A DNA stretch of 28,144 nt from an uncultured archaeon (GTDB lineage Archaea > Thermoproteota > EX4484-205 > JAAOZP01), in the NCBI GenBank assembly GCA_938045545.1, contig CALIBN010000040.1, positions 1-28,144 of the forward strand, given 5' to 3'. Each line of letters opens with the position of its first letter. Positions within the stretch are counted from its first letter, which is position 1. Below the pieces are notes generated by a model. It was not told the DNA's origin. It did not search any database and saw only the letters and a list, made by a program, of their open reading frames with translations. The translations under genes and the position numbers were made by a program. Below, piece by piece: positions 3,498 through 18,328 of this stretch.

Positions 3498-3935
3498 GTG
3501 AAGCCCCAGCCCGGAAAGTATGATTACCCTGAACACACGTCTGACGTATACGTTCAGGCCTACGGGAGAAGCCTGGAGGAGGCTTTCGAGAACGCTGCAC
3601 TCGGCCTGACAGGAGTAGTGACAGACGTTTCAAGAATAAATCCTGAGCAGGCTGTTGAGGAAACAGTTGAGGCTGAGGATCTTCAAATGCTTCTCTACAA
3701 GTGGCTGGAAGCAATACTGGTCAGGCTTGACGCTGAGCAGATGGTTTTCTCAGTCTTCAACGTGAAAATAGAGAAGGGTGACGACAAGTATTTTCTCAAA
3801 GCCGTTATGAAGGGTGAGAGATTCAAGCCTGGGTGGCACACCAGCGGCACGCATGTTAAGGCAGTAACCCTGCACGACATGGAGATATATGAATCACCCT
3901 GCGGCGCAAGGGTTAAGGTTCTTCTAGACATATAG
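3498..3935 (+). CDS. Archease (RtcB activator)
   Basis: YDYPEHTSDV...AYGRSLEEAFENAA...VKAVTLHDM...VLLDI. Start moved to GTG 3498 because the tracked upstream extension overlaps feoB. Confidence 0.92.
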   Translation: MKPQPGKYDYPEHTSDVYVQAYGRSLEEAFENAALGLTGVVTDVSRINPEQAVEETVEAEDLQMLLYKWLEAILVRLDAEQMVFSVFNVKIEKGDDKYFLKAVMKGERFKPGWHTSGTHVKAVTLHDMEIYESPCGARVKVLLDI

Positions 3936-4016
3936 CTTGATTCCATTGTTTAGGAGTTTAAAGGGAAAGGAATCATCCCAGTAATTCTTAAGTATTCTCG
4001 CCTTCTAAAATGCACT

Positions 4017-4412
4017 ATGGTTGAGAGAAGCGCGGACTGGATTGACCAAGCTGAGGGTGATTTGGTGCATGCGAAGCACGATTTGAAATCCGGTTTTTAC
4101 GACTGGGCCTGTTTCTCTGCGCAGCAGTCAGCAGAGAAGGCTGTTAAAGCAGCCCTTCAAAAGCTGGGTGCTGAAGCATTGGGGCACTCAGTCTACGATC
4201 TTCTAATACATCTTAAGGAGAAAGAGCCTGTCAGCACCATGCTGTTAGAGTATTCTCTAGAACTCGATAAAGCCTATATTCCTACGAGGTATCCTAATGC
4301 ACACCCTTCCTCCTCACCGAGGAGACGGTATACTAGAGGAGAGGCGGAGAGGCTGATTAAGTATGCAGAAGAAATACTCGAGTTCTGTAAAAGTATTCTT
4401 TCCAAAGTTTAG
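4017..4412 (+). CDS. HEPN domain protein (HEPN-MNT toxin-antitoxin-like pair)
   Basis: YDWACFSAQQSAEKAVKA, GHSV and YIPTRYP motifs; adjacent to MNT. Confidence 0.9.
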   Translation: MVERSADWIDQAEGDLVHAKHDLKSGFYDWACFSAQQSAEKAVKAALQKLGAEALGHSVYDLLIHLKEKEPVSTMLLEYSLELDKAYIPTRYPNAHPSSSPRRRYTRGEAERLIKYAEEILEFCKSILSKV

Positions 4413-4716
4413 CCTTGAGGAGGTTATAATGGAGGTAGGCAGAGTAGTCTCACTTTTATCTGAAAGCCTGGCTTTGAAAAAGGTTATAATCTTCGGCTCA
4501 TACGCTAAAAGGCGTTACACCGCAGGAAGCGATATAGACCTTTTTGTGGTTTTCGACGACACGCGATGTGCGAAGGACAACGTGTATAAGACTCTGATGA
4601 AGAACATTAAGCTGCCGAGACTAGAGCTGCACATCCTCTCATTAAAAGAGTATCAGGAAATAAATGGTTCAAAATGGATTAAAACAATAGATGAAGAAGG
4701 TATCAGAATCCTGTGA
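4363..4716 (+). CDS. Minimal nucleotidyltransferase (MNT) of HEPN-MNT pair
   Basis: IFGSYAK...SDIDLFVV (GS-x-DxD) motif; overlaps the HEPN gene. Confidence 0.9.
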   Translation: MQKKYSSSVKVFFPKFSLEEVIMEVGRVVSLLSESLALKKVIIFGSYAKRRYTAGSDIDLFVVFDDTRCAKDNVYKTLMKNIKLPRLELHILSLKEYQEINGSKWIKTIDEEGIRIL

Positions 4717-4836
4717 CAAGGTGGACAAGCAGGGTGCTGCTTTAAACCATATCCCCATTACTCTTTTCGTAAGATACATGAATGCTCGCCAACCGAGCCC
4801 AGATTTAAATGTCAAGAACCAGCGCTCGTTGCACGC

Positions 4837-5167
4837 TTACAGAATCTTTTCAAACATGACTGCATCCGTTTGCCTAGAAATAGAATATCCAAGTCTCTTA
4901 AAGAAGACCTGGGCATCATGGTTTTCATTGCTTACGATAAGTCACCCTGCGAGCTCCCATCGCAGCAAGACCGGCTTCGGCGGCCTTCACAAGCCTGCTG
5001 CCTATCCCTCTCTTTTAAAAGCCGGGGTGAAAGATTATGTCAGAGATATACCCTATCTCAGTGCTTCTATGGAACTCCCTCTTAAAGACTTCCAAGGGCC
5101 ATACGTATCCCGAGCAGTAGAAGATGAAACCGACGAGCCCTATGATCAGCTTATCGCGGGGCTCCGC
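4837..5167 (-). pseudogene. GNAT-family N-acetyltransferase pseudogene
   Basis: Manual minus-strand translation ...GLVGFIF...GYISDIIFHPGF*KRGIGSRLVKAAEAGLAAMGARRV / LIVSNENHDAQVFFKRLGY...MFEKIL*. GNAT motifs A and B are present, with a TAA at 5015-5017 and a frameshift near 4942. The 5' boundary is uncertain. Confidence 0.8.
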
Positions 5168-5454
5168 TTAAAACCCGGTGATCTGAAAAGTATTCGCCCT
5201 CCCTCAATATCAGCCAAGGCTAAGCGGGGGCGAAAGTTGCTGGCATAAAAAACTTATGTGTTCTTGCTCATGCGGGCATGACCCGCGATCCTTAGCTGTT
5301 TTATTCAAACCTCAAAGGATCCGGCAACCTATGTTGTATACAACTTAGACGCTTCATAATGCGTTAAGGATGATGCTATTTGTTTTGCCCCTAGGAAATA
5401 GGATAACTGTTGAGCCTCCTGACAGGGATCAGCGCGCCATCGTCTACGCTTAGC

Positions 5455-5685
5455 TCAAGCACTGGGAATCTGGGACATGTATCTTTTAGCGGCCATCCTA
5501 ACGTCTTCGGCTCTGACCGTTTTGCGCTTGGCGAAAACTGCAAGCTGCGCCGCGTCTCTTGCTATCCTTGTCCCTATTTCCTCAAGTATTCTCGAAAGCT
5601 CCTCAGCTGCTTCCTCGCTCACTCTTTCTCCGCCCGATTTCCTAAGAATACGGTACATGGCCGCTAGGGACAGTTCCTCCGACAT
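5455..5685 (-). CDS. Archaeal histone (HMf-like)
   Basis: RILRKSGGERVSEEA...AKRKTVRAEDV histone-fold signatures, 76 aa. Confidence 0.93.
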   Translation of the reverse strand: MSEELSLAAMYRILRKSGGERVSEEAAEELSRILEEIGTRIARDAAQLAVFAKRKTVRAEDVRMAAKRYMSQIPSA

Positions 5686-6220
5686 TTAAATTACCGTTCT
5701 TTGAGGTAAATGAACAGATTAATAAGTCTTTTTGGGTGGGAAAGGTTAATTTTTTTGACTAAAATCGATAAAGTCTTAGGAATCAACCTAATCCCTGCTG
5801 AAAAACGGGTTTGAGGTGGTTTAAACGTGCTTCCGACGCTTTAAGAAACATAGAGGATTAAGAAGGCTCAGCGCTTACTCAATAGTTTCAGCCCCGCTTA
5901 AGCGGCTTAAACCGTTTTTTCCAGCGTAAGAAAGCACTGGACCCTGCTTATCAACCTCCACCAGAAGGGTTGCATTGTTTCCCGTAGGCGAGCCAAACAC
6001 GCTCCTGCGGCAACGTTGCCTGTGTTTAAAAACAAGCGGAATGCTTCGCTTAAATGAACACAAGTAGAGAATTTTTTATGTTATGCCGCCGTAACCATGG
6101 CTGAAGATGGCAGCTTGTTAAAGGCTCCTGAAAGAGTAGCGCTCGCAGCTACTTTTTCCGCGAAAGAATACTTTTTAAGTAAGAAATGAATGAACTCCGT
6201 TTACGAAGGGTAGTTGAAAA

Positions 6221-9200
6221 ATGCTCTTGGACGAGTTTGCAAAACTGTTCGACGGCGAGTATGAGATGCAGTTACTTGAGAACAAAGTGTTAGAATTCTG
6301 GGAGGAGAACAAGATACCTGTGAAACTTAGAAAGCTAAGATTGGAGAGAAATATAGGAAAACTTGGATACGTTGAAGGACCGCCGACATTGAACGGTCGT
6401 TGTCACGTAGGTCATACATGGGGTCGGGCGATGAAGGACCTGTGGTACAGGTGGAGGTCGATGCAGAATTACTACGTTCTTTTCAGGGCGGGCTGGGATA
6501 CGCAGGGCTTGCCTGTTGAGATCGAGGCTGAGAAGGAGCTCGGATTTTCAAACAAGAAGGAGGCTCTTGAAAGGCTTGGAGAGGAAAGGTTCGTTGCAGA
6601 GATAAAGAAGATCCTGAACAAGTATCACGAGGACTGGAGGAGGGTTGACAGGAGGTTCGGCATGTTCATGGACTATGAGAAGGAGTACTTGACGTATAGG
6701 GATGAGTATATTGAGAGGGAGTGGAAGTATCTTGAGAAGGCTTATGAACAGGGGCTTCTCGGAAAGGGCTACAGGGTTGTAGCATACTGTCCGAGCTGCC
6801 AAACTTCTCTGAGCAACGCTGAAGTCGGCCAGGAGTACAGCATGGTTGAAGATCCATCCGTGTACTTCAAGGTTAGGCTTGAAACCGGGGACTATGTTCT
6901 AGTATGGACCACGATGCCCTTCACGATTGTTACTGACGAACTTCTCGCAGTGAACCCTGAGGCGGAGTACGTGAGGGTCAGGGTAGGCGGGGAAAGATGG
7001 ATAATGGTCGGAAGCCTTGTTGAAACCCTAATGGATAAGCTGGGAATATCCGACTATGAGGTTGAGAAAACCTTCTCAGGGGCTGAGCTGGAGGGCAAGA
7101 AATACGTCTACCCCATGCTGGAGGAGGTTCCGCACCAGAAGAGGCTTGAGCAGGAAGACGATAGGATACACAGGATAGTTACAGCAGACTTCGTCGACGT
7201 CACCACAGGAACGGGTGTGGTCCACTTGGCGCCTGCAAACGGCGAGGAGGACTTTGAAGTGGCGCAGAGGATGAAAATACCAGTATTCTCGCCGTTTGAC
7301 GATGAGGCAAGGTTCACTGAGGAAGCAGGCTTCTTTAAAGGGCTTTTCGCAAGGGACGCGGATCAGGTTGTTCTAGATATTCTGAAAAAGAAAGGGCTCT
7401 TGGTTAAGTCGGAGAGAATCCTCCACGAGTACCCCTTGTGCTGGAGGTCTAAGCACAGGCTCATATGGCTGGCTAGAACGGAATACTTCTACTGGCTTGA
7501 CAGGATCGTGGACAGGCTTCTGGAGGCAGCGTCCAAAGTGGAATACTTCTATAGTCCTCCGAGAAACAGGTTCCTGGCCTTCATAAAAGAGGGAAAGCCG
7601 TGGTGCATATCTAGGGAGAGAGTGTGGGGGACGCCGCTGCCAATATTCGTCTGCGAGAAGTGTGGCAGGGAGGAGCTTCTAGCCTCAAGGAGGAAAATTG
7701 TTGAACGTGCCATAAGCCTGCCTGACGGAGAGAGCTTTGAGCTCCACAAGCCTTGGATAGACAAGGTTAAGGTGAGATGCCAGTGTGGAGGAGTTATGCA
7801 CAGGGTTCCATTCGTGCTAGACACGTGGCACAACAGTGGGGCTGCACCTTATGCAAGCATGACCGACGAGGAGTTTGAACAGTATGTGCCGGTTGAGTTC
7901 CTGGTTGAATCCATAGATCAGACTCGAGGATGGGCCTTCACACTGCTCGTTGAAAACGTTATATTGAAGAACAGGGCTGAGGCGCCGTATAAGGCGTTCC
8001 TATTCTATGGGCAGGTTCTGGACGAGAAGGGGAATAAGATGAGCAAGAGCCTGGGAAACGTTATAAACACTGAGGACGTTATAACAAGGTACTCTGCAGA
8101 CCTGTGCAGATTCTATCTTCTTTGGAAGACGAACCCGCTGGAGAACATTAACTTCAGCTTTAAGGAGATGATGGAAAGGCCGTTCCAGGTTTTAAACACA
8201 TTCTTCAACCTGGGGAAGTTGCTTAAGCAGAATGCGGAGTACGACGGGTTCAGCTATGACGCATACAGCCTTGAATGGGCCTTGAAGAAAGGCTTTGTAA
8301 AGGACTCGGAGAAATGGCTTCTCTCATGCCTCCAAAGGGTTATAGAAATAGTGACGGATGGCTTTGAAAAAATGAGGATTCATGAGTCTGCAAGGGCGCT
8401 GGAGAAGTTCATCGTTGAAACGCTTAGTAGACGGTACGTGCCCATGGTTAGGAAGGATCTCTGGAGCGACGCGCCCGAGGACCTTGAGAGGAGAATGACC
8501 ATATACGCTACACTCTTCAATGTTCTAAACACTGTTAACAGGCTTATGAATCCTTTAACTCCCTTCCTCGCTGAAGCCATGCACCAAGGGGTTGTTAAAA
8601 GGTTCAGCGGGAACACGGCCGAGTCGGTGAACCTTGAACAGTGGCCAACTCCTGACAGGAGCCTCGTGGACGAGAAGCTTGAGAAAGACTTCGAAAGGAT
8701 TGACGAGGTCGTGAGCACTGTGAACTGGGCGAGGATGAAAGCGGGTATTAAGAGAAGATGGCCGCTCAGGAAAGCAGTACTCGTACTCAGCGAAGAGTAC
8801 TCGGAGAGCGTTAAGAGAAACATGAACCTGCTTCGCGAAATGATTAACGTTAAGGAGGTTTCTTTGAAGGGCAGCCTGGAGGAGGCTGGTGTTAAGACAA
8901 GGGTAAGAATAAACTATTCTGCAGCAGGCCCAAGGTTCAGGGAGAAAGCTGGGAAAATAGCTAGCCTCGTTTCAGCAAGGCCCGAGGAAGCAAGGAGAAG
9001 CATTGAGAAAGATGGAAGATACGTGGTTGAAGCAGACGGCGAATCGTTCGAACTTACTGCTGAAGACCTTGTTTTCGACCACGAGCCGCCCGCGAACCAC
9101 GTGTTGGCCACAGGCAAACCGGGCTGCGTCATACTGGACACTGAGAGAACCCCTGAGCTCGTCGCTGAAGGATACATGAGAGATGTTGCGAGAAGAATAC

Positions 9201-9496: not shown

Positions 9497-9589
9497 GCTC
9501 CGGTGGTGTAGCCCGGCAAGCATACCGGCCTTTCGAACATCTGGGTTGAAGACAGCCGGGGGTCCCGGGTTCAAATCCCGGCCGGAGCA
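9497..9589 (+). tRNA. tRNA-Glu(TTC) with 18-nt intron at 37/38
   Basis: Acceptor GCTCCGG/CCGGAGC, anticodon stem CCGGC/GCCGG, TTC at 9532-9534, T-arm CCGGG-TTCAAAT-CCCGG. No encoded CCA. Confidence 0.93.
9536..9553 (+). other. tRNA-Glu intron (relaxed BHB)
   Basis: CTTT(32-35) pairs with GAAG (9548-9551) with 3-nt bulges; the outer intron helix is weak. Confidence 0.85.
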
Positions 9590-9593
9590 TAAA
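9567..9593 (+). repeat. attL-like direct repeat (3' end of tRNA-Glu)
   Basis: GGGTTCAAATCCCGGCCGGAGCATAAA, identical to 12468-12494. Confidence 0.93.
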
Positions 9594-9740
9594 ACTTAAA
9601 TATTTTGATACTTTTTTAATTTGCTTTATTATAAGCAGGAGGCGTGGAAAAAACAGCTTATTTTTTGATAAGCTGGATTAGAATTTACTCCATGCTCAAC
9701 ATATTTACTTAAATCCTGGAAATGAGAACTTTTATTGAAA

Positions 9741-10825
9741 ATGGGTAAATGCGGGTTTAATTGCAGAGAGTGTTCCTATTTCAAGAAGCCCTGTATCGGC
9801 TGCGTGATCGAAACTTGTTTAGTGGATAAGTGCATTAAGGGTACCTCTTATACGGGGATAACGCATCCGAGGAGTTTCTGCAAGCTCAGACAGTATTGTC
9901 CCATCGGAGGTAATAGTAGGCCTCTTCCAGTGTTAATTCAACCTATAGGGAATAGGCAGATGATAAAGGTGAAGTTCTCCAAGTTTATACCTGAGATAGA
10001 TATCACTGATCAAGGTCCTGGGTTTGGAAGGATGGTTTCGAAGTATCAGCGGTTTTCATGCCTCTCTGGCAACTGCTTGCAAACGAAAGCATGCTGTCCC
10101 AAGCTTCTAGTAAGGGTCTCCATGATTACCTTGGCTTCAACGGCAAAATACTACTCTCCACAGTTATGCCTGACGAGCTTATCGATAGGCTTGAGACCAA
10201 GGACTACTTCAAGCTGATCAAAGAGCTGAGGCCAGACGCCACAATGATTCCAGACAACTATACTTACACCGATGTCCCGCTTTACCAATCTTGGTCTCAG
10301 ACAATAAGGCTTGTAAACTTCGCCAACGACTTCCTTAAGCTTGACATTCCTCTCATAGGTCTAATTAAAGGAGCTAACCTTCGCCAGATGGATTGGGCCG
10401 TCAGGAAGCAAGTTGAAATGGGCTACGTTTCCTTCGCTATGCCCGCGAGGGAGCTTTTCGAAGAGGAGATGCTGGATTACTTTCTACCACAGATCTTACT
10501 GACCCTAAAAAGAAGTTATAAAAAGAGGAGCGATTTCGAGTTTCTCCTCTACGGTGTCGGCCAGAAGCTTTCGAGATATAAGGATATCAGTTTAAGCAAC
10601 CTCTCTTGGTTTCTGAGGGCGAAGCATGGGGAATACTATTGGGATGGGTTATTCTACGACCTTAGGGATCCCGTGATCAGGTTCAATGAGTGTTATTGCG
10701 AAGCATGCAGAGGAATGATGCCGCAAGATATTATCGACCTTTGGTTCGAGAATAAGGAGCGTGCTCTGAGAACCCTAGCGGTACACAACATTCTGGATCT
10801 GAGTCAATGGAGGCGGAGAAGGTAA
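9741..10825 (+). pseudogene. Frameshifted Cys-rich N-domain + tRNA-guanine-transglycosylase-fold (DUF4417/DpdA-like) protein, ~360 aa when joined
   Basis: Track ORFs 9735-10217 and 10058-10825 join with a -1 shift near 10013 (PEIDITDQ/RSWVWKDGFEVSAVFMPLWQ). C-terminal CxCx2C-x25-H TGT-type zinc site; strand motifs MIPD, GLIKG, FAMP and LLYGVG. May be an intact gene with a sequencing error. Confidence 0.65.
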
Positions 10826-10828
10826 AGA

Positions 10829-11749
10829 ATGGGTGGAGGCTCAGCCATAAGGCAGCATAAGAGAAGGTTCCTCCAGGGAGAATCTGAAGAAACCGGTAGG
10901 AAGGAGGAATGTGAAGAAGCCTACTGGATGGTTAAATCATTTGGGGAATGCAAGGTACGTGAAACGGAAAGCGGCGAATATGAATTAGTCAAAGGGACAA
11001 CCACCGTCGGCATATTTTCAGAGGCATGCGTCGGGGAGAGAAGAATCCTATTTCCTCTGAGCCATGGAATGCTGCTTGAAGTCTCAAATGAAGGTATTAG
11101 GGAAATAGCTACACCTGATAAAGCAGTACTCTTCGGGCTAATATCCTCTGATGGAAGCAATGCTTATTATTGGAGGATTGATTCAAAAGGAAGGTATCAC
11201 TCTGAGTATTCAACTAGGTTCTACTCTGAAAATAATGAACTCATAGAGTTGTTCGACGAATTATTCGAGAAAATATATGGTTTAAATCCACACCACTATG
11301 TTAGAAAAAGGAACGGTTTAATTACTGCGGCAATATATTCTAAAGGGGTCTACTATGATTTAAGCGATTATGATGTCAAGACAGGAGCTTACGAGTTTAG
11401 AGTCCCCCGAGAACATCTCGATTATGAGGGGAAGAGGGCATACTTGAAAGGCTTCTTCTCCGGAGATGGGAAGGCCTCTCTGACTCGCGAGGGAAGTCTT
11501 ACAATACGGTTCTACTCGAAATGTAAAGAAGGTCTAGAAGGCTTACGTCAACTCCTTATAGATTTGGGCTTCCATCCTCACGAAATTAGAGAAGAGAGAG
11601 AAGAACCAGAGGGTGTAGTCTACTGGTTTTCAATTCCGAGTAGGGAGCATATGAAGTTTATAGAAGATATAGGAAGCTTTAAGCCTAGGCACAGAGAAGT
11701 ATTTGAAGAGTATGGAAGATTACGAGGTGAGGAGGGTGAAAGGAGCTAG
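10829..11749 (+). CDS. Free-standing double-motif LAGLIDADG endonuclease-like protein with ~95-aa N-terminal extension
   Basis: LFGLISSDGS and YLKGFFSGDGK motifs, then IRFYSK...LRQLLIDLGF and KFIEDIG as in intein-type LAGLIDADG domains. No intein splicing termini. Confidence 0.85.
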   Translation: MGGGSAIRQHKRRFLQGESEETGRKEECEEAYWMVKSFGECKVRETESGEYELVKGTTTVGIFSEACVGERRILFPLSHGMLLEVSNEGIREIATPDKAVLFGLISSDGSNAYYWRIDSKGRYHSEYSTRFYSENNELIELFDELFEKIYGLNPHHYVRKRNGLITAAIYSKGVYYDLSDYDVKTGAYEFRVPREHLDYEGKRAYLKGFFSGDGKASLTREGSLTIRFYSKCKEGLEGLRQLLIDLGFHPHEIREEREEPEGVVYWFSIPSREHMKFIEDIGSFKPRHREVFEEYGRLRGEEGERS

Positions 11750-12404
11750 AGTTTGGGGGTGGGGCGACGATCTAGAATTAGCCGGAAAGAATGCTCAAAC
11801 ATACGTAAACAAGCGGTGGGGAAACAAGACAGAAGAATGCTCTATTGCGGTGGATGGTAGAAGTGAAGACATACTGTTTAAAATCACCGTGTACATGAGT
11901 AAGCCTGAAGTCGTGGAAGATCTTGTTAACAACCTCTTTGATATTGCCTTAACAAGAGGGAGCAAGATATACTCAGTTACTGTTAGTCTGTATGATCATA
12001 TGGCTTCAAGCGGAATAACATGTACAAACAGTCTACCATTTGTAAGAGAAGCTTATGAGAGACGAAAGCAGATTCTCATGGAGAAATTTAAGGAACATCC
12101 GGAGGTTAAGTACCTGTTGGAAGAAGGAAGAACCCTGATAGTAATTCCGGCGACCGCAATACTGTGTGAATTAGAGTCGAAGTGCTTTAACAAGGTGATA
12201 GTGTGGACAAGCAACTATGATTTTGGCCCTCTCATGGATTATGTCCACCTCATTGCTAACAGGCTGATCGAACGCAAAATTGCTACTCGTATTGTAGGAT
12301 ATGACCTGAGGAACAATGTAGAAGAATTGACGATACTTGATATAGATTTGGATATGAGGGGGAAAAAGGTTTACTTATGGTTAGACCATCCTCCTGTCAA
12401 GTAA
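11712..12404 (+). CDS. Hypothetical protein, third gene of the island operon
   Basis: ~230-codon ORF overlapping the nuclease stop; no recognisable motif. Start is 11703 (TTG) or 11712 (ATG). Confidence 0.75.
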   Translation: MEDYEVRRVKGARVWGWGDDLELAGKNAQTYVNKRWGNKTEECSIAVDGRSEDILFKITVYMSKPEVVEDLVNNLFDIALTRGSKIYSVTVSLYDHMASSGITCTNSLPFVREAYERRKQILMEKFKEHPEVKYLLEEGRTLIVIPATAILCELESKCFNKVIVWTSNYDFGPLMDYVHLIANRLIERKIATRIVGYDLRNNVEELTILDIDLDMRGKKVYLWLDHPPVK

Positions 12405-12467
12405 AAAATCTTGGACTAATAATAGATGTTTTATACTGAAGAGAATAGTTTAGACTTGTATGTTCGT

Positions 12468-12494
12468 GGGTTCAAATCCCGGCCGGAGCATAAA
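12468..12494 (+). repeat. attR-like direct repeat (tRNA-Glu 3' fragment)
   Basis: Identical to 9567-9593; no 5' tRNA half upstream. Confidence 0.93.
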
Positions 12495-12671
12495 CTTAAA
12501 ATAAAACTTAAATATTTTTATATTTTACACTTGCGCGCGCCTCCAAGCTCGCCAACCCGTTCTAAAATGGGAACGCTAGGCTAAGATAAGGTTTTCCGGC
12601 GCGTGTGGAAGGATTATGAGCTGGAGCCGGTTAGATGAAGTTAAACAGGCTTTACGGAAAGCATTAGGGAC

Positions 12672-14213: not shown

Positions 14214-14523
14214 TCTGCTTGGTTTCCTCCAGTATTCCTGACTCCCCCTGGCTCAATATTCCTATAACGGAGGCGGGGTGTTTTAAGTTTAACGCTTTAC
14301 CCAGGACTATTCGGGAACCATCGTAGACTATTGCTGGCGTTTTAGAAAGCTCTATAGCGTTCCGAAGCTTGCTCAGCAATGGCTGCGGGAGGCTTGAAAC
14401 ATAGATTACGCCCTCCAGCTTACCCTGAAGCAGGAGCCTGTAGACCTCGTTGAACCCTGCTACGAAAGAGCCTGTTTTAGCAAGCAGTTCAAGCCTGCTG
14501 CTGAGCGACACTTTCTCCGCCAT
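14197..14523 (-). CDS. rpl30e: 50S ribosomal protein L30e
   Basis: KTG...G, YDGSRIVLGKA, ILSQGES; synteny after rpo1. Start set at ATG 14523. Confidence 0.85.
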   Translation of the reverse strand: MAEKVSLSSRLELLAKTGSFVAGFNEVYRLLLQGKLEGVIYVSSLPQPLLSKLRNAIELSKTPAIVYDGSRIVLGKALNLKHPASVIGILSQGESGILEETKQNDKQG

Positions 14524-17500
14524 CGTTGTTCTCACTCCTGCTTAAGAAGCCCCCTATATCAACATATACTTTAACCATTCCAGTGCCTGCGAAAATCTCT
14601 GAGCCTGCAAGAACCCTCTCGGTCATCCCGAGCAGCCTGTCCTCAGCGCCTGAGACAGCTCCTTCAACAAGAACCTGAACAGCCCTTTCGAAAGCAGCCT
14701 TGGCGAGCACGCTCTGCTTTCTCCCGCTTACACCATGCCTGCCTATCTGCTTTATCTCCCCGTCCTGCGTCATGGCGCTTGCGACAAGAGAGAGATGCCT
14801 CCAGTCGACGTCCAGCCCCTGCTCGTTAAGCGTCTTCCACATCTCGTTTATCAGGGCTGCCCTAGCAGCCTCAATGCCGAGCACGCTGGCGATCTCGTGA
14901 ATATCGTTGCTTATTGTCCTTGTATGGTCCACCTCGGGAATGTTGAAAACCTCAACAAGGTTGCTTCCCTCGGTCACTATGCAGTACTCACCACCCTCCT
15001 CCTTCAGGAGGACTCCTTTAACCTTCGTTATTCCGCTGACCGGCGTCTTCCTTATCTTGGACTCGAACTTCTGCGGGTCGGTTTTAATAAGTATTTCAAA
15101 ACTCCCGTCGCTCTTAACGTTGAACTTCAAGCCGAGTGTTTCAAGAACTTTTTCAACATCCTTCTCCGTGAGTCCTCTCTCACTGAGCCATTCTTTAACA
15201 GGGTGTATGACAAGATAGTCGTAAGCCATTGTGGATTTCAAGCTTATCCTAGAAACGTCTTCAATAGTCGTGTAGACGAGTTTTCTCGCAACCCTCAGAG
15301 CCCTAGCGTAATCCTTGTTATACGGGGTTTTAAGATAAACAGTCATCATGGGCGTCTTAGGCGTTTTCCTAGCGTCTAGCAGCTCGATCAGCCTAGGCAG
15401 GCCGAGGGTGACGTTGGCCTCTCTAACCCCGGCGTAGTGGAATGTTCTAAGCGTCATCTGTGTTCCCGGCTCGCCTATGGATTGGGCTGCAACAACCCCG
15501 ACGCTTTCACCAGCCTCAACGAGCGCGCGGCGATACTCTCTCAATATCTGTTCAACCACGTTTCTAGCAGCCTGCTTAGACAATCCTTTTGAAACTATCG
15601 CGTGGAAAGCCTCCCTCTGAATGTTCACCGGCAGAAGCCTCCCATGCTCCTCGATTATTCTCTTAACGGTCTGCCTGTCCGCCGGCTTACCCTTCTTAAC
15701 CGCTGAAAGCGCATATTCCTCAACTATCCTCTTCGCGTCGACAGACTTACCGTGGTCGCTCTTAGACGGGTCGACCCCGTCCTCGCCATATATCACGTCG
15801 ACAATGTTCCCGTAGGAGTCTCTAACGGTTCCATCGTACTCAACCCTGAGTGACTCCAGCGCGTGAATGAGCCTACGCTGAAGATACCCGCTCTGCTGCG
15901 TTCTGACGGCGGTGTCGACGAGAGACTCACGGCCCCCCATCGAGTGGTAGAAGAGCTCAACCGGGGATAGGCCGGTGTAATAGTTAGACTTTATGAATCC
16001 TCTGGCAACTGGGCTGAGGTCTCCTTTGCGGAAGTGTGGCAACGGCCTTCCAATGTAACCCTTGAAGATTCTCTTGCCGCGGAGCGCTTGCTGGCCTAGG
16101 CATCCGGATATCTGGCCCACGTTTAGGTCTGAGCCCCTTGCACCTGTTTTAGTCATTATGACCATGTTGTTATCCAGCCCGAGGGAGGAGGATACTAGGC
16201 TGCCAACCTTACTCCTGACTTTTGAGAGAGCATCCATTATGTATGCTTCCAGGCTTTCCTCCTCGCTCATCCCAGGTATCCTCTTAATCCTCCCCTTGCT
16301 CCAGTCCTCCAGAAGACTGTTTACTTCAACGTCAGCCTGGTTAGCTTCCTTCTCAACCTGCCCCTGAACCTCCTTGGGGAGGCTCACATCCCTGTAGCTG
16401 AAGCTGAACCCCCTTAAGAGCAGGAACTCTCTAACCATTTTCTGGAAGGAGGATATGAACCTGTGTCCCTCTTCAGCCCCATACTTTTTAATAATCCTGT
16501 GGAGAATCGTGTCTGCCTTCTCAGCCCCTATCGACGCCTTATCTATTACTCCGGAAACCAGCTTGCCGTTTTTCACGATTATCTCAGCCTCGTCTCTAGA
16601 CGGGCCGCCTACGCTGGTCTTGTTAACATAGTTGAAATCCTCTTTGAAGAGGAGGCTGACTGCCTGTCTGCCTGACCATAGTGGCACCGGCTTCTTAACC
16701 TCCGGCTCGGGAAGCTTGCCCTCGTACCCGGCGGCGTAGATGATTCTCGCAAACTCTTCCTTCGTTAGGTACGTGTCTTTTCTGGTCAGCAGGTAGGCCC
16801 CTGTTATGAAGTCCCTGATGGCGCCCATAATGGGCGCGCCGTATCTCGGCGTCAAATAATGCTTCTTAACTCCTAGAAGCATGCTTGTCTCAACATGGGC
16901 CTCGATGCTCTGGGGGACGTGCAGGTTCATCTCGTCGCCGTCGAAGTCAGCGTTGTAAGGCGGGCAGACACTCGGATGCAGCCTGAAGGTTTTACCAGGG
17001 AGAACTTTCACCCTGTGTCCAAGCATTGAGAGACGGTGGAGCGAGGGCTGCCTGTTGAAGATTACGAAGTCCCCGTCTAAAAGGTGTCTTTCGACGATGA
17101 ACCCTATGTCAAGAGCCTCTGCGAGAGAATCCCTGTTCTCGACGAATTGAAGCTTATGCCTAGCGCCGTTCGGCCTCACAACGTATTCTGAACCGGGATG
17201 TATGAAAGGCCCGTTTCTAACGAGCTGAACCAGCCAGTCCCTATTCCAATATGTAACCCTCTCCGGAACAGTAAGGATCTTAGCGATCTCCTCCGGGACC
17301 CCGACCTCGTCTATACCCAGATATGGGTCTGGAGATATGACTGTTCTAGCTGAGAAGTCAACCCTCTTGCCGGAGAGGTTCTTCCTGAAGCGTCCCTCCT
17401 TGCCTTTCAGCCTCTGGGCGAGAGTCTTCAGGGTTTTACGGGTCCTGTGTTGAGCCGGAAGAATGCCAACAGCCTCGTTGTCGAAATAAGTTGTAACATG

Positions 17501-18328
17501 GTATTGTAGAAGATCCTCGTGGTCCTGTATTATGAGTGGGGACGCGCCTGACTCAATATACTCCCTTATCCTGCGAGCCGTCCTAACTATGTCTACAAGC
17601 TTATGCGTCAAATCGTCCTCAGATCTCTCTCCTGTTTCAAGTATTATCGAAGGCCTCACTTGAATAGGTGGCACTGGCAGAACCTCTATCACGTACCATG
17701 CCGGATGGGCAACCTCAGGATCAATGTTTAGAAGCCTAAGGTCATCTTCAGGAATCCTGATTAAACGCTCCCTTATGATCCGTGTGTTTAAAAGCCTTAG
17801 GACACCATCAGGATCCCTCTCGTAAAACCTTGTGGGCCTTTCCAGCTTAACCTGGTACTTGTCAGCCCCGCAGTGGGGACACCTGTTAGACCTTCTCACC
17901 TCATCCTTTATCTGGTCGAAAATCTGGTCTGGAACAATGCCATAGTTCTCCTCAAACTCCCTTATCTTCTCCCTGTAGTCGCTTATCCTATCGCTGGGAA
18001 GTAGGATTCTGCCGCACTGTCTACACGTAGACTGGAGAACCCTCTCTATCTCCCTTGCGAAAGAGACGTGTATAACTGGAACCGGCAGCTCAATGTGTCC
18101 GAAGTGCCCGGGACACTTATCCGGAAGGTTTCCGCAAGTCTTACACCTCTGCCTAGGCTCTATTGTGCCGAGCCTAGTGTCCATCACCCCTCCGGGAACG
18201 GATAGGCCGTCCTGATCGTAAGTCTCATCCGTAGTGACCTCCATTACTGAGAGCCTTCTGATCTCCACTGGGGAAAGAACTCCGAACTTTATAGAATCTA
18301 CCTGTTTTATCTCAACCTCTTGGCTCAT
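14489..18328 (-). CDS. rpoA: RNA polymerase largest subunit, unsplit Rpo1 (A'+A'')
   Basis: CPGHFGHIEL, NLSGKRVDFSARTVI and NADFDGD, with A''-type AAQSIGEPGTQMTLRTFH in one 1279-aa ORF. Confidence 0.97.
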   Translation of the reverse strand: MSQEVEIKQVDSIKFGVLSPVEIRRLSVMEVTTDETYDQDGLSVPGGVMDTRLGTIEPRQRCKTCGNLPDKCPGHFGHIELPVPVIHVSFAREIERVLQSTCRQCGRILLPSDRISDYREKIREFEENYGIVPDQIFDQIKDEVRRSNRCPHCGADKYQVKLERPTRFYERDPDGVLRLLNTRIIRERLIRIPEDDLRLLNIDPEVAHPAWYVIEVLPVPPIQVRPSIILETGERSEDDLTHKLVDIVRTARRIREYIESGASPLIIQDHEDLLQYHVTTYFDNEAVGILPAQHRTRKTLKTLAQRLKGKEGRFRKNLSGKRVDFSARTVISPDPYLGIDEVGVPEEIAKILTVPERVTYWNRDWLVQLVRNGPFIHPGSEYVVRPNGARHKLQFVENRDSLAEALDIGFIVERHLLDGDFVIFNRQPSLHRLSMLGHRVKVLPGKTFRLHPSVCPPYNADFDGDEMNLHVPQSIEAHVETSMLLGVKKHYLTPRYGAPIMGAIRDFITGAYLLTRKDTYLTKEEFARIIYAAGYEGKLPEPEVKKPVPLWSGRQAVSLLFKEDFNYVNKTSVGGPSRDEAEIIVKNGKLVSGVIDKASIGAEKADTILHRIIKKYGAEEGHRFISSFQKMVREFLLLRGFSFSYRDVSLPKEVQGQVEKEANQADVEVNSLLEDWSKGRIKRIPGMSEEESLEAYIMDALSKVRSKVGSLVSSSLGLDNNMVIMTKTGARGSDLNVGQISGCLGQQALRGKRIFKGYIGRPLPHFRKGDLSPVARGFIKSNYYTGLSPVELFYHSMGGRESLVDTAVRTQQSGYLQRRLIHALESLRVEYDGTVRDSYGNIVDVIYGEDGVDPSKSDHGKSVDAKRIVEEYALSAVKKGKPADRQTVKRIIEEHGRLLPVNIQREAFHAIVSKGLSKQAARNVVEQILREYRRALVEAGESVGVVAAQSIGEPGTQMTLRTFHYAGVREANVTLGLPRLIELLDARKTPKTPMMTVYLKTPYNKDYARALRVARKLVYTTIEDVSRISLKSTMAYDYLVIHPVKEWLSERGLTEKDVEKVLETLGLKFNVKSDGSFEILIKTDPQKFESKIRKTPVSGITKVKGVLLKEEGGEYCIVTEGSNLVEVFNIPEVDHTRTISNDIHEIASVLGIEAARAALINEMWKTLNEQGLDVDWRHLSLVASAMTQDGEIKQIGRHGVSGRKQSVLAKAAFERAVQVLVEGAVSGAEDRLLGMTERVLAGSEIFAGTGMVKVYVDIGGFLSRSENNDGGESVAQQQA

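Follow-up and report, generated by a model that had tools for sequence, protein, structure and literature searches.

A mobile three-gene unit at tRNA gene 3′ ends in Brockarchaeota-lineage archaea, with a TGT-fold gene, a LAGLIDADG-type gene, and no known recombinase

Results

Layout of the locus

The window analyzed here is the 28,144-nucleotide stretch of contig CALIBN010000040.1 (assembly GCA_938045545.1) from an uncultured archaeon. It contains a tRNA-Glu gene, three co-oriented genes (gene 1, gene 2, and gene 3; together, the trio) and a direct repeat of 27 + 18 nt, all within positions 9497–12526. An earlier sequence-only reading of this DNA had reported three co-oriented, tightly coupled genes with a tRNA and repeats, and all these features were found by means of the open reading frame (ORF) list, ARAGORN, Rfam, and a repeat search. 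That reading regarded the trio as the cargo of an island bounded by attachment (att) sites; the comparisons described below showed it to be instead the whole of a repeat-bounded mobile unit that is present in multiple copies. The features of the locus are the following:

9497–9589, forward strand: intron-containing tRNA-Glu(UUC) gene, the integration target (rebuilt); ARAGORN, Rfam RF00005 at 51.8 bits
9567–9614, forward strand: direct repeat, left copy, comprising the last 23 nt of the tRNA and about 25 nt of downstream flank; repeat search, blastn
9701–9717, forward strand: promoter-like box ATATTTACTTAAATCCT, about 25 nt before the start of gene 1; putative function
9741–10825, forward strand: gene 1, with a Cys-rich N-domain (about residues 1–115) and a TGT-fold barrel; AlphaFold 2 (AF2), Foldseek, hhalign
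10829–11749, forward strand: gene 2, with an N-domain (about residues 1–95) and a monomeric two-motif LAGLIDADG endonuclease; Pfam, profile comparison with I-DmoI
11736–12404, forward strand: gene 3, for a 222-aa two-domain alpha/beta protein; homologue lengths, AF2; the longest ORF starts at 11703
12468–12526, forward strand: direct repeat, right copy, comprising a partial tRNA 3′ end and flank with an 11-nt internal duplication; repeat search, blastn

The two repeat copies match in two parts separated by an 11-nt indel: 9567–9602 with 12468–12503 (27 nt exact), and 9589–9614 with 12501–12526 (18 nt exact). In contigs of run X1, an extra A at position 12491 of the right copy was present at 37.6 of 69.7 summed depth, and it brings this copy closer to the left one. 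Gene 1 and gene 2 are separated by 3 nt, gene 2 and gene 3 overlap, and the likely start of gene 3 is the GTG at 11736, according to the lengths of its homologues and a GGAGG directly upstream. The ORF list of the window showed no further ORF of at least 100 aa between the repeats. When 14 upstream regions were aligned with MAFFT, the box ATATTTACTTAAATCCT was found 5′ of gene 1 in most copies, and no other conserved non-coding signal was detected in them.

A multicopy family under purifying selection

The trio is one copy of an element family of about 2.8–2.9 kb that is represented by around 11 diverged or decayed copies in the 2.03-Mb genome to which the window belongs (the source genome). 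Six are complete sets (C40, which is the window copy, C11a, C11b, C18, C42, and C10), one is a decayed trio (C12a) and four are partial copies (C12b, C16, C47, and C10b); two additional gene 1 starts lie at contig ends. Identity of these copies to the window proteins was 64–85% for gene 1, 44–63% for gene 2, and 31–51% for gene 3, which bore out the gradient of conservation that had been predicted from the sequence alone (gene 1 > gene 2 > gene 3).

Using a gene 1 profile, 80 metagenome loci were collected. Gene 2 lay directly after gene 1 at 64 of them (10 of the other 16 have less than 300 nt of room), and gene 3 came next at 44 of these 64 (16 of the other 20 are without room), so that the claimed association of the three genes was recovered elsewhere. 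The gene order was kept in 44 of the 48 loci roomy enough for all three genes. As to the six loci with room yet no gene 2, L079 was a counting artefact caused by a split gene 1, L102 is a deletion derivative, and the remaining ones are the most diverged, with 43–49% gene 1 identity. Since the same trio was found again at many loci, its arrangement is far beyond chance. Ratios of nonsynonymous to synonymous substitution rates (dN/dS) ranged from 0.07 to 0.22 over all three genes, including those of an unsaturated pair (dS 0.14–0.38), and all three genes are under purifying selection.

Within the window's order, 19 of the 25 other genomes had matches to the gene 1 profile (1–10 each). In the rest of the phylum, weak matches appeared in only 5 of 175 searched genomes: three ordinary arcTGT genes, one fusion of the gene 1 N-terminal part with gene 3 beside a tRNA gene, and one long form of gene 1 (see below). 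The 45 loci from the species-genome collection were located in metagenome-assembled genomes (MAGs) titled Brockarchaeota, Thermoproteota, or Nitrososphaerota/Thaumarchaeota, with the exception of a 2,950-nt contig in a Fervidobacterium MAG, which is probably mis-binned. The family is confined to MAGs of the Brockarchaeota lineage, archaea that live in hot springs. A search of 2.9 million viral contigs gave 35 pattern matches, none of which was confirmed as a relative.

Two kinds of rearranged copies were also noticed. At C18:36150–39280 and at L046, gene 3 precedes gene 1 in inverted orientation and has a duplicated gene 2 tail on its left, and the 5′ end of a tRNA-Gly faces gene 2. In C10 (27102–27134 and 29755–29787), and also in L050, 28–33 nt of the sequence coding for the N-terminal part of gene 1 recur immediately past gene 3, probably as a truncated tandem copy.

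Position at tRNA genes and marks of mobility

At 8 of the 11 source-genome loci, the 3′ end of a tRNA gene faces the element at a distance of no more than 152 nt, counting that of C42, which scores 28.2 bits and thus slightly below the Rfam gathering score of 29. In the commonest layout in this genome the tRNA is convergent with the stop codon of gene 3, 4–44 nt away, while in the window and on the left of C16 it precedes gene 1 and points the same way. Given 42 tRNA matches in 2.03 Mb, adjacency by chance would be of the order of 1%. In the metagenomes, a tRNA at the gathering score was found in one of the two positions at 13 of the 33 loci with flanks, which is an undercount, as the tRNA-like repeats of L031 and L051 were missed by Rfam. 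Direct repeats derived from the tRNA and enclosing only the trio were found at the window copy (27 + 18 nt), at C11a (42 nt exact, 52 nt at 98%), and in the metagenome loci L136 (28 nt), L030 (31 nt), L049 (35 nt), L055 (53 nt), L051 (55 nt), and L031, where the repeat of 123 nt is the whole tRNA. Since the element carries a tRNA 3′ segment by gene 3, the tRNA gene is rebuilt and a partial copy of it is left at the far end.

Comparison of equivalent sites revealed both occupied and unoccupied states. At the tRNA-Ala(CGC) site, the distance from flank to tRNA was 47–276 nt in eight of nine loci of sister (congeneric) genomes versus 2,965 nt here; the ninth carries an unrelated insert of 1.35 kb. 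At the tRNA-Glu site of the window, gene 1 follows the tRNA in genomes G006, G007, and G009, and no gene 1 was found within the 1–1.5 kb examined in G008, G010, and G002. A second tRNA-Glu gene is occupied in L026 by a related element, which places 2,766 nt where the corresponding C18 site of the source genome has 445 unrelated nt, and whose right edge is separated from the end of the tRNA by 5 nt. Older copies were found stacked at a single tRNA: the complete element of L049 is preceded by a fragment of gene 2, the tail of a gene 3, and a piece of a tRNA, and L071 is a second stacked or tandem case. In C11a, the 29-nt "flank" part of the repeat encodes PAVKH-stop, the C-terminal tail of the gene 3 homologue P0132, and this footprint survives in the sister genomes G007 and G012. 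Because the C11a flank is the tail of an older element, the attachment site of the free element appears to be made up of the end of gene 3 together with a 3′ fragment of a tRNA. Internal-deletion derivatives retaining the 5′ part of gene 1 together with gene 3 were represented by C12b, C16, P0128, and a 399-aa ORF in L121.

Fusions of the Cys-rich N-terminal part of gene 1 to gene 3 were observed by tRNA genes at L121 (6607–7806; G177, another family), P0128, C12:77571–78548, and C16:38106–38846, and these may be non-autonomous mini-elements.

Two modes of insertion were considered and discarded. A target-site duplication produced by a transposase-like staggered cut was ruled out, given repeats of 27–123 nt and a C11a repeat that is partly the tail of an older element. 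Strict homing, in which the insertion splits the recognition site, was set aside, given that one side of the insertion restores the tRNA together with as much as 29 nt of flank.

Searches of the three proteins against Pfam, PADLOC-DB 2.0, PHROGs, and NCBIfam revealed no integrase or transposase domain, and no tyrosine recombinase gene lies beside a copy, the nearest being about 10 kb away. The trio is, then, a mobile and selected three-gene unit located at tRNA 3′ ends, which carries its own tRNA fragment and no known recombinase.

The variable repeats bear on the possibility that the element is the remnant of a tiny integrated plasmid or virus-like replicon, with gene 1 or gene 3 encoding a new replication protein and integration achieved by host homologous recombination. 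The smallest archaeal plasmids are similar in size and in their content of three genes, and repeats containing from 23 to 123 nt of tRNA fit a homology-driven, Campbell-type integration. Against it, there was no circular contig among 40 small contigs and there were no joints, no Rep, primase, or helicase domain was found, no relative came from the viral contigs, and the conserved catalytic residues of the LAGLIDADG protein (see below) would be left unexplained. A relic replicon is the least likely of the readings, and we consider it very improbable.

The same footprint raises a different alternative, namely that gene 3 or gene 1 encodes a recombinase of a new type, or that a tyrosine recombinase acts in trans, gene 2 being only a selfish maintenance or homing nuclease. 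Direct repeats with a rebuilt tRNA are the classic footprint of integrases in the accounts given in parts of PMC3293823 and PMC4158269, the stacked arrays fit serial integration at a rebuilt site, and the att site is next to gene 3, where int genes usually are. In addition, the source genome does contain four tyrosine recombinase genes. However, none of these four is beside a copy, the at least eight different tRNA targets in one genome would demand several specificities, and close relatives are found in both orientations to the tRNA. The properties of the gene 3 product, which bear on this alternative in both directions, are given below.

Gene 1 encodes a TGT-fold protein with altered catalytic positions

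Gene 1 of the window is split over two frames by a 1-nt shortfall in a run of A at 10012–10013. A Logan contig of run X1, which covers 92% of the window's sampled words, has one extra A at the break (depth 25.8 of 25.8); with it, gene 1 becomes an open frame of 361 codons that contains all key residues and is 81.6% identical to an intact paralogue. Since the X1 contig has the intact frame, the break probably reflects an error of assembly or variation between strains; X1 may be the very sample behind the assembly of the window. A programmed frameshift was ruled out, as copy C10 is broken elsewhere and the X1 frame is intact.

A structure model was built from the intact paralogue C11a (361 aa) with AF2, with a predicted local distance difference test score (pLDDT) of 83.6. 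In Foldseek it gave 299 Protein Data Bank (PDB) matches at E ≤ 0.001, the best of which was arcTGT, an archaeal tRNA-guanine transglycosylase (TGT; 1iq8, E 2.6e-14, TM 0.64), with bacterial TGTs also among the best. Profile comparisons agreed: hhalign aligned gene 1 with arcTGT at a probability of 98% (E 3e-13), and in hmmsearch the gene 1 profile matched arcTGT among PDB sequences with E 1.7e-7. In Pfam, gene 1 scored 15.2 and 20.3 bits, below the gathering cut-off of 26.3 for TGT (PF01702). The zinc site CxCxxC...H is present, residues C318, C320, C323, and H349 being invariant in 30 sequences and aligned to the arcTGT site, and the base-binding Asp (Asp130) is retained as invariant D174 in both the hmmsearch and the hhalign alignments. 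In contrast, the general acid/base Asp (Asp95 in both the Pyrococcus horikoshii arcTGT and DpdA) corresponds to an invariant Ser142 in both alignments, and the SGG(F/Y) loop is deleted. The nucleophile Asp (Asp249 of arcTGT, Asp256 of DpdA) corresponds to Ser286 according to hhalign or to Phe291 according to hmmsearch, and no conserved acidic residue was found within residues 280–296. According to the portion of PMC10164549 that treats them, none of the three aspartates of the active site varies among TGT and DpdA proteins. Because both catalytic Asp positions align with serines, gene 1 as judged from these alignments is a TGT-fold protein in which two defining catalytic features have failed, and not a canonical TGT or DpdA. 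The earlier description of gene 1 as a TGT-fold enzyme stands for the fold, the zinc site, and the base-binding Asp, and falls for the two catalytic aspartates.

The N-domain of gene 1, of about 115 residues, contains nine conserved Cys, including the motifs CX3CX2C and CX2CX4-5CX4C, and was modeled with low confidence. Neither this domain nor the N-domain of gene 2 had a Pfam match even at E ≤ 10.

In the source genome, which is 92% complete, nothing other than gene 1 copies exceeded the PF01702 cut-off, and hence no canonical TGT was found there. As to a supply of preQ0 in the host, matches to the QueC model reached 29 bits at best, in frames of 322–415 aa that are probably other PP-loop enzymes. 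Archaeosine may be absent from this lineage.

The sequence-only reading had proposed that the trio might be a modification-plus-nuclease module resembling restriction-modification (RM). In its broader form this alternative is a conflict module, of the RM or the toxin-immunity type, in which gene 1 modifies or masks, gene 2 provides the nuclease, and gene 3 provides immunity or specificity, the whole behaving as an addictive selfish unit. The adjacency of a nuclease gene to a gene with the TGT (DpdA) fold in a tight operon is what would be expected of such a module, as are the purifying selection on all three genes and the fast evolution of gene 3, since immunity and specificity factors often evolve fastest; some control of the nuclease is also logically needed because its target is rebuilt, and a distant long form joins the same fold to two nuclease-type domains. 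Set against this, gene 1 lacks both catalytic Asp of TGT and DpdA, residues presented as invariant in the relevant part of PMC10164549, and the source genome has neither a canonical TGT above the Pfam cut-off nor a convincing QueC. A defense-system search with PADLOC-DB 2.0 gave only weak domain matches (TGT, E 0.0014; homing endonuclease, HEase, E 2.8e-4; gene 3, none) and no defense family beyond these. PHROGs and NCBIfam likewise yielded no more than weak domain matches. Moreover, up to 10 matches per 2-Mb genome, stacked arrays, and deletion derivatives resemble a transposon rather than a defense system, and no relative was confirmed in the viral contigs. With the catalytic Asp residues missing, the conflict reading loses its enzymatic basis; we regard it as distinctly improbable, and it may stay as an added "addiction" role.

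Gene 2 encodes a putative LAGLIDADG nuclease that may track the tRNA target

The designation of gene 2 as a LAGLIDADG nuclease gene was sustained by a Pfam LAGLIDADG_3 score of 40.9 bits (cut-off 22.5) and by a profile match to the whole length of I-DmoI (residues 11–181, E 1.2e-7). At Asp108 of motif 1 (KAxLxGLIASDGS), 14 of 15 sequences have D and one has E, and in motif 2 (LKGFFSGDG), Asp213 is invariant in all 15. With the acids of both motifs retained, the gene 2 product looks like an active, I-DmoI-like nuclease. Its N-domain (about 95 residues) is conserved and was found only within this family in a word-based search, and its homologues are named "LAGLIDADG family homing endonuclease" in databases. 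Gene 2 is a free-standing ORF of a three-gene operon, outside any intron or intein; free-standing homing endonuclease genes are known from other systems.

Target specificity was examined in pairs of elements with a known adjacent tRNA and 76–90% gene 1 identity, a target being counted as the same when the tRNA 3′ ends agreed at 22 or more of 23 nt. In the five pairs at the same tRNA, gene 2 identity was 68, 74, 72, 79, and 68%, whereas in the 11 pairs at different tRNAs it was 58–67%. Gene 3 showed no such split (42, 52, 73, and 44% at the same tRNA versus 38–59% at different ones). This comparison gives a hint that gene 2, and not gene 3, tracks the tRNA target.

Gene 3 encodes a protein without known fold or family

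The AF2 model of the gene 3 product (pLDDT 92) consists of two ferredoxin-like alpha/beta domains joined by helices. Foldseek gave no match at E ≤ 0.001, and in a wide fold search (VIA) the best hit was to generic ferredoxin-like domains with a Z of 6.0. A search of 1.84 billion representatives with the gene 3 profile retrieved 76 proteins, all of up to 232 aa except one of 1437 aa. That protein (P0185), the sole long match, was hit with E 5.5e-10 in 15 stretches and is probably a repeat or low-complexity case. Homologues of gene 3, like those of gene 1, are annotated as "hypothetical protein" in the source databases. Gene 3 is without known fold or family.

Its conserved residues, namely invariant Tyr189, Lys77, Glu34, and Glu145 and nearly invariant Arg185, are of the kind that would suit a recombinase of a new type, the alternative introduced above. 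On the other hand, the protein is unlike any recombinase fold or family in Foldseek, VIA, and the family searches, and it does not track the target, same-target pairs being 42–52% identical in three of four cases. Taking these points together with the footprint, the trans-acting candidates, and the range of targets, we hold insertion by a recombinase, whether encoded by gene 3 or gene 1 or acting in trans, to be unlikely, though it is the main alternative.

A distant long form of gene 1

The genomes that encode gene 1 also encode a longer relative of 600–650 aa, in which a Cys-rich N-domain and a TGT-like barrel are followed by a calcineurin-like phosphoesterase (metallophosphoesterase) and which matches gene 1 along its entire length (E 3e-31). 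The next gene encodes a protein of 438–850 aa that starts with MGQxS, has weak LAGLIDADG_3 and helix-turn-helix (HTH) matches, and resembles gene 2 in BLASTP (E 0.001). The loci of the long form, its neighbor, and the decayed copies are:

L117: long form at 5447–7249, neighbor at 4127–5443
L118: long form at 6180–8087, neighbor at 3702–6176
L119: long form at 6815–8635, neighbor at 5331–6734
Source genome, decayed long-form copies: C16:33435–34573 and C10:56547–57932

Since the long form has the same pairing, the association of a gene 1 fold with a LAGLIDADG-like protein predates the element, and the long form hints at a broader protein partnership. Together with the conserved gene order, this argues that gene 2 is an integral partner and not a recent, independent insertion of a homing endonuclease. 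Neither of the two outcomes that the earlier reading had named as refuting it was found.

Neighboring genes in the window

The genes around the locus are housekeeping genes: IleRS upstream, and S7, S12, NusA, L30e, RpoA, and RpoB downstream. RNA polymerase subunit A (14489–18328, reverse strand) is a single ORF of 1279 aa with Rpb1 domains 1–5 and no A′/A″ split. At 4017–4716 (forward strand), a HEPN-domain gene overlaps a minimal nucleotidyltransferase gene, forming a pair that resembles HEPN/MNT-type toxin-antitoxin systems.

Discussion

A possible mechanism of insertion

The reading that we tentatively prefer, to which we give a little less than an even chance, is that the LAGLIDADG nuclease may drive recombination between the tRNA 3′ fragment borne by the element and the chromosomal tRNA gene. 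The gene 2 protein would make its cut within the tRNA gene, the probable site being the pseudo-palindromic T-arm or 3′ region contained in every repeat. The break would then be resolved by recombination or ligation of the chromosomal tRNA gene with the tRNA fragment of the element, and its repair would insert or copy the element. Gene 1 would provide a nucleic-acid-binding partner of the nuclease and not a base-exchange enzyme, and gene 3 an essential accessory protein.

Several observations weigh against this proposal. A perfect rebuilding of the tRNA and of the repeat would let the nuclease cut the integrated state again, so that some form of control would be needed. Gene 3 abuts the att site, its distance to the tRNA end being 4–16 nt in most copies, and this is a position typical of integrase genes, and the four tyrosine recombinase genes (PF00589) elsewhere in the source genome could give help in trans. 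The tracking of the target by gene 2 is based on 16 non-independent pairs, and the "tRNA" of L027 is only a partial Rfam match. As for gene 1, the alignments conflict over the replacement of the nucleophile Asp (Ser286 in hhalign, Phe291 in hmmsearch), and an invariant Asp147-Glu148, 5–6 residues past Ser142, might take the place of the lost acid. The copies of the source genome are old (at most 85% identical), and no recent intragenomic jump is documented. A circular form was not seen, none of 40 whole small contigs having terminal overlaps, and no excision, circle, or empty-site joints were found in the contigs of four runs, although contigs hide rare forms. Since no circle or joint was seen, movement itself follows from the comparisons between loci.

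A more far-reaching version of nuclease-driven insertion, which we consider rather doubtful, is that the three proteins would constitute an integrase-independent DNA integration machine that reads tRNA genes, and with it a new class of self-mobile element. Here the gene 1 protein, with Ser at the two catalytic Asp positions and a newly gained Fe-S or Zn domain, would recognize the tRNA gene or its transcript by base flipping, position the LAGLIDADG nuclease and, with the gene 3 protein, direct a cut-and-join insertion.

Significance of the family

To our knowledge, the described elements that integrate at tRNA genes all owe their movement to casposases or to recombinases of the tyrosine or serine type. 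The family presented here is widespread, selected, and multicopy, and it integrates at tRNA genes without any of these. If the LAGLIDADG protein does drive insertion, homing endonucleases would have a new route to power a free-living mobile element, the family would provide a natural set of nucleases against different tRNA genes that could serve as targeting scaffolds, and the TGT fold would have a new non-catalytic or re-tooled use. If the reading as an integration machine were true, it would be a natural case of a homing endonuclease recruited as an "integrase". In Brockarchaeota genomes, some of the fragmentary tRNA genes, of the breaks in contigs, and of the genes labeled "hypothetical" are accounted for by these elements.

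Comparison with known systems

Full-text literature searches yielded no description of this gene set, and a term look-up in PMC4158269, on archaeal "dark matter", gave no hit for LAGLIDADG, TGT, or transglycosylase.

Individually, the proteins have recognizable relatives. Gene 1 shares with TGT and DpdA the TIM-barrel TGT fold, the CxCxxC...H zinc site, and the base-binding Asp, but it is without the catalytic Asp pair, has an extra Cys-rich N-domain, and is accompanied by no dpdB or dpdC partners. QTRT2 is a non-catalytic TGT-fold subunit of the eukaryotic TGT that pairs with an active TGT. Gene 1 resembles it in having the fold, the loss of catalytic residues, and possibly the role of a partner subunit; unlike QTRT2, its partner, if any, would be the LAGLIDADG nuclease, a pairing suggested by gene order only. 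Gene 2 resembles I-DmoI and other monomeric LAGLIDADG endonucleases, with the whole of I-DmoI aligned and two motifs with their acids. It differs from that type in lying outside an intron or intein, in its extra N-domain of about 95 residues, and in its operon with two conserved partners, and insertion of the trio, which does not simply split a recognition site, restores the target and leaves a repeat behind.

As a mobile unit, the trio has in common with tRNA-integrating elements of the SSV and pNOB8 types an att site beside an element gene and serial stacking, as these are described in sections of PMC3293823 and PMC4158269. In contrast to them, it is a unit of 2.8–2.9 kb with three genes only, without an integrase gene either whole or split, and its family is found in both orientations relative to the tRNA. 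By the features that define integrase-type elements, it has the tRNA 3′ repeats and the rebuilt tRNA but no encoded tyrosine or serine recombinase. It differs from transposons and casposons in lacking inverted repeats at its ends and a target-site duplication of fixed length, its repeats measuring 27–123 nt and consisting of att homology that stems in part from the tails of older elements. The closest parallel in concept is with TnpB of the IS605 family, a transposon-encoded "homing" nuclease according to the part of the preprint that presents it (bioRxiv 10.1101/2023.11.20.567912), in that a nuclease of the element cuts vacant sites and break-stimulated recombination keeps or spreads the element. 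As described there, TnpB is RNA-guided and encoded beside the TnpA transposase, whereas the nuclease of the trio would be guided by protein and is accompanied by no transposase.

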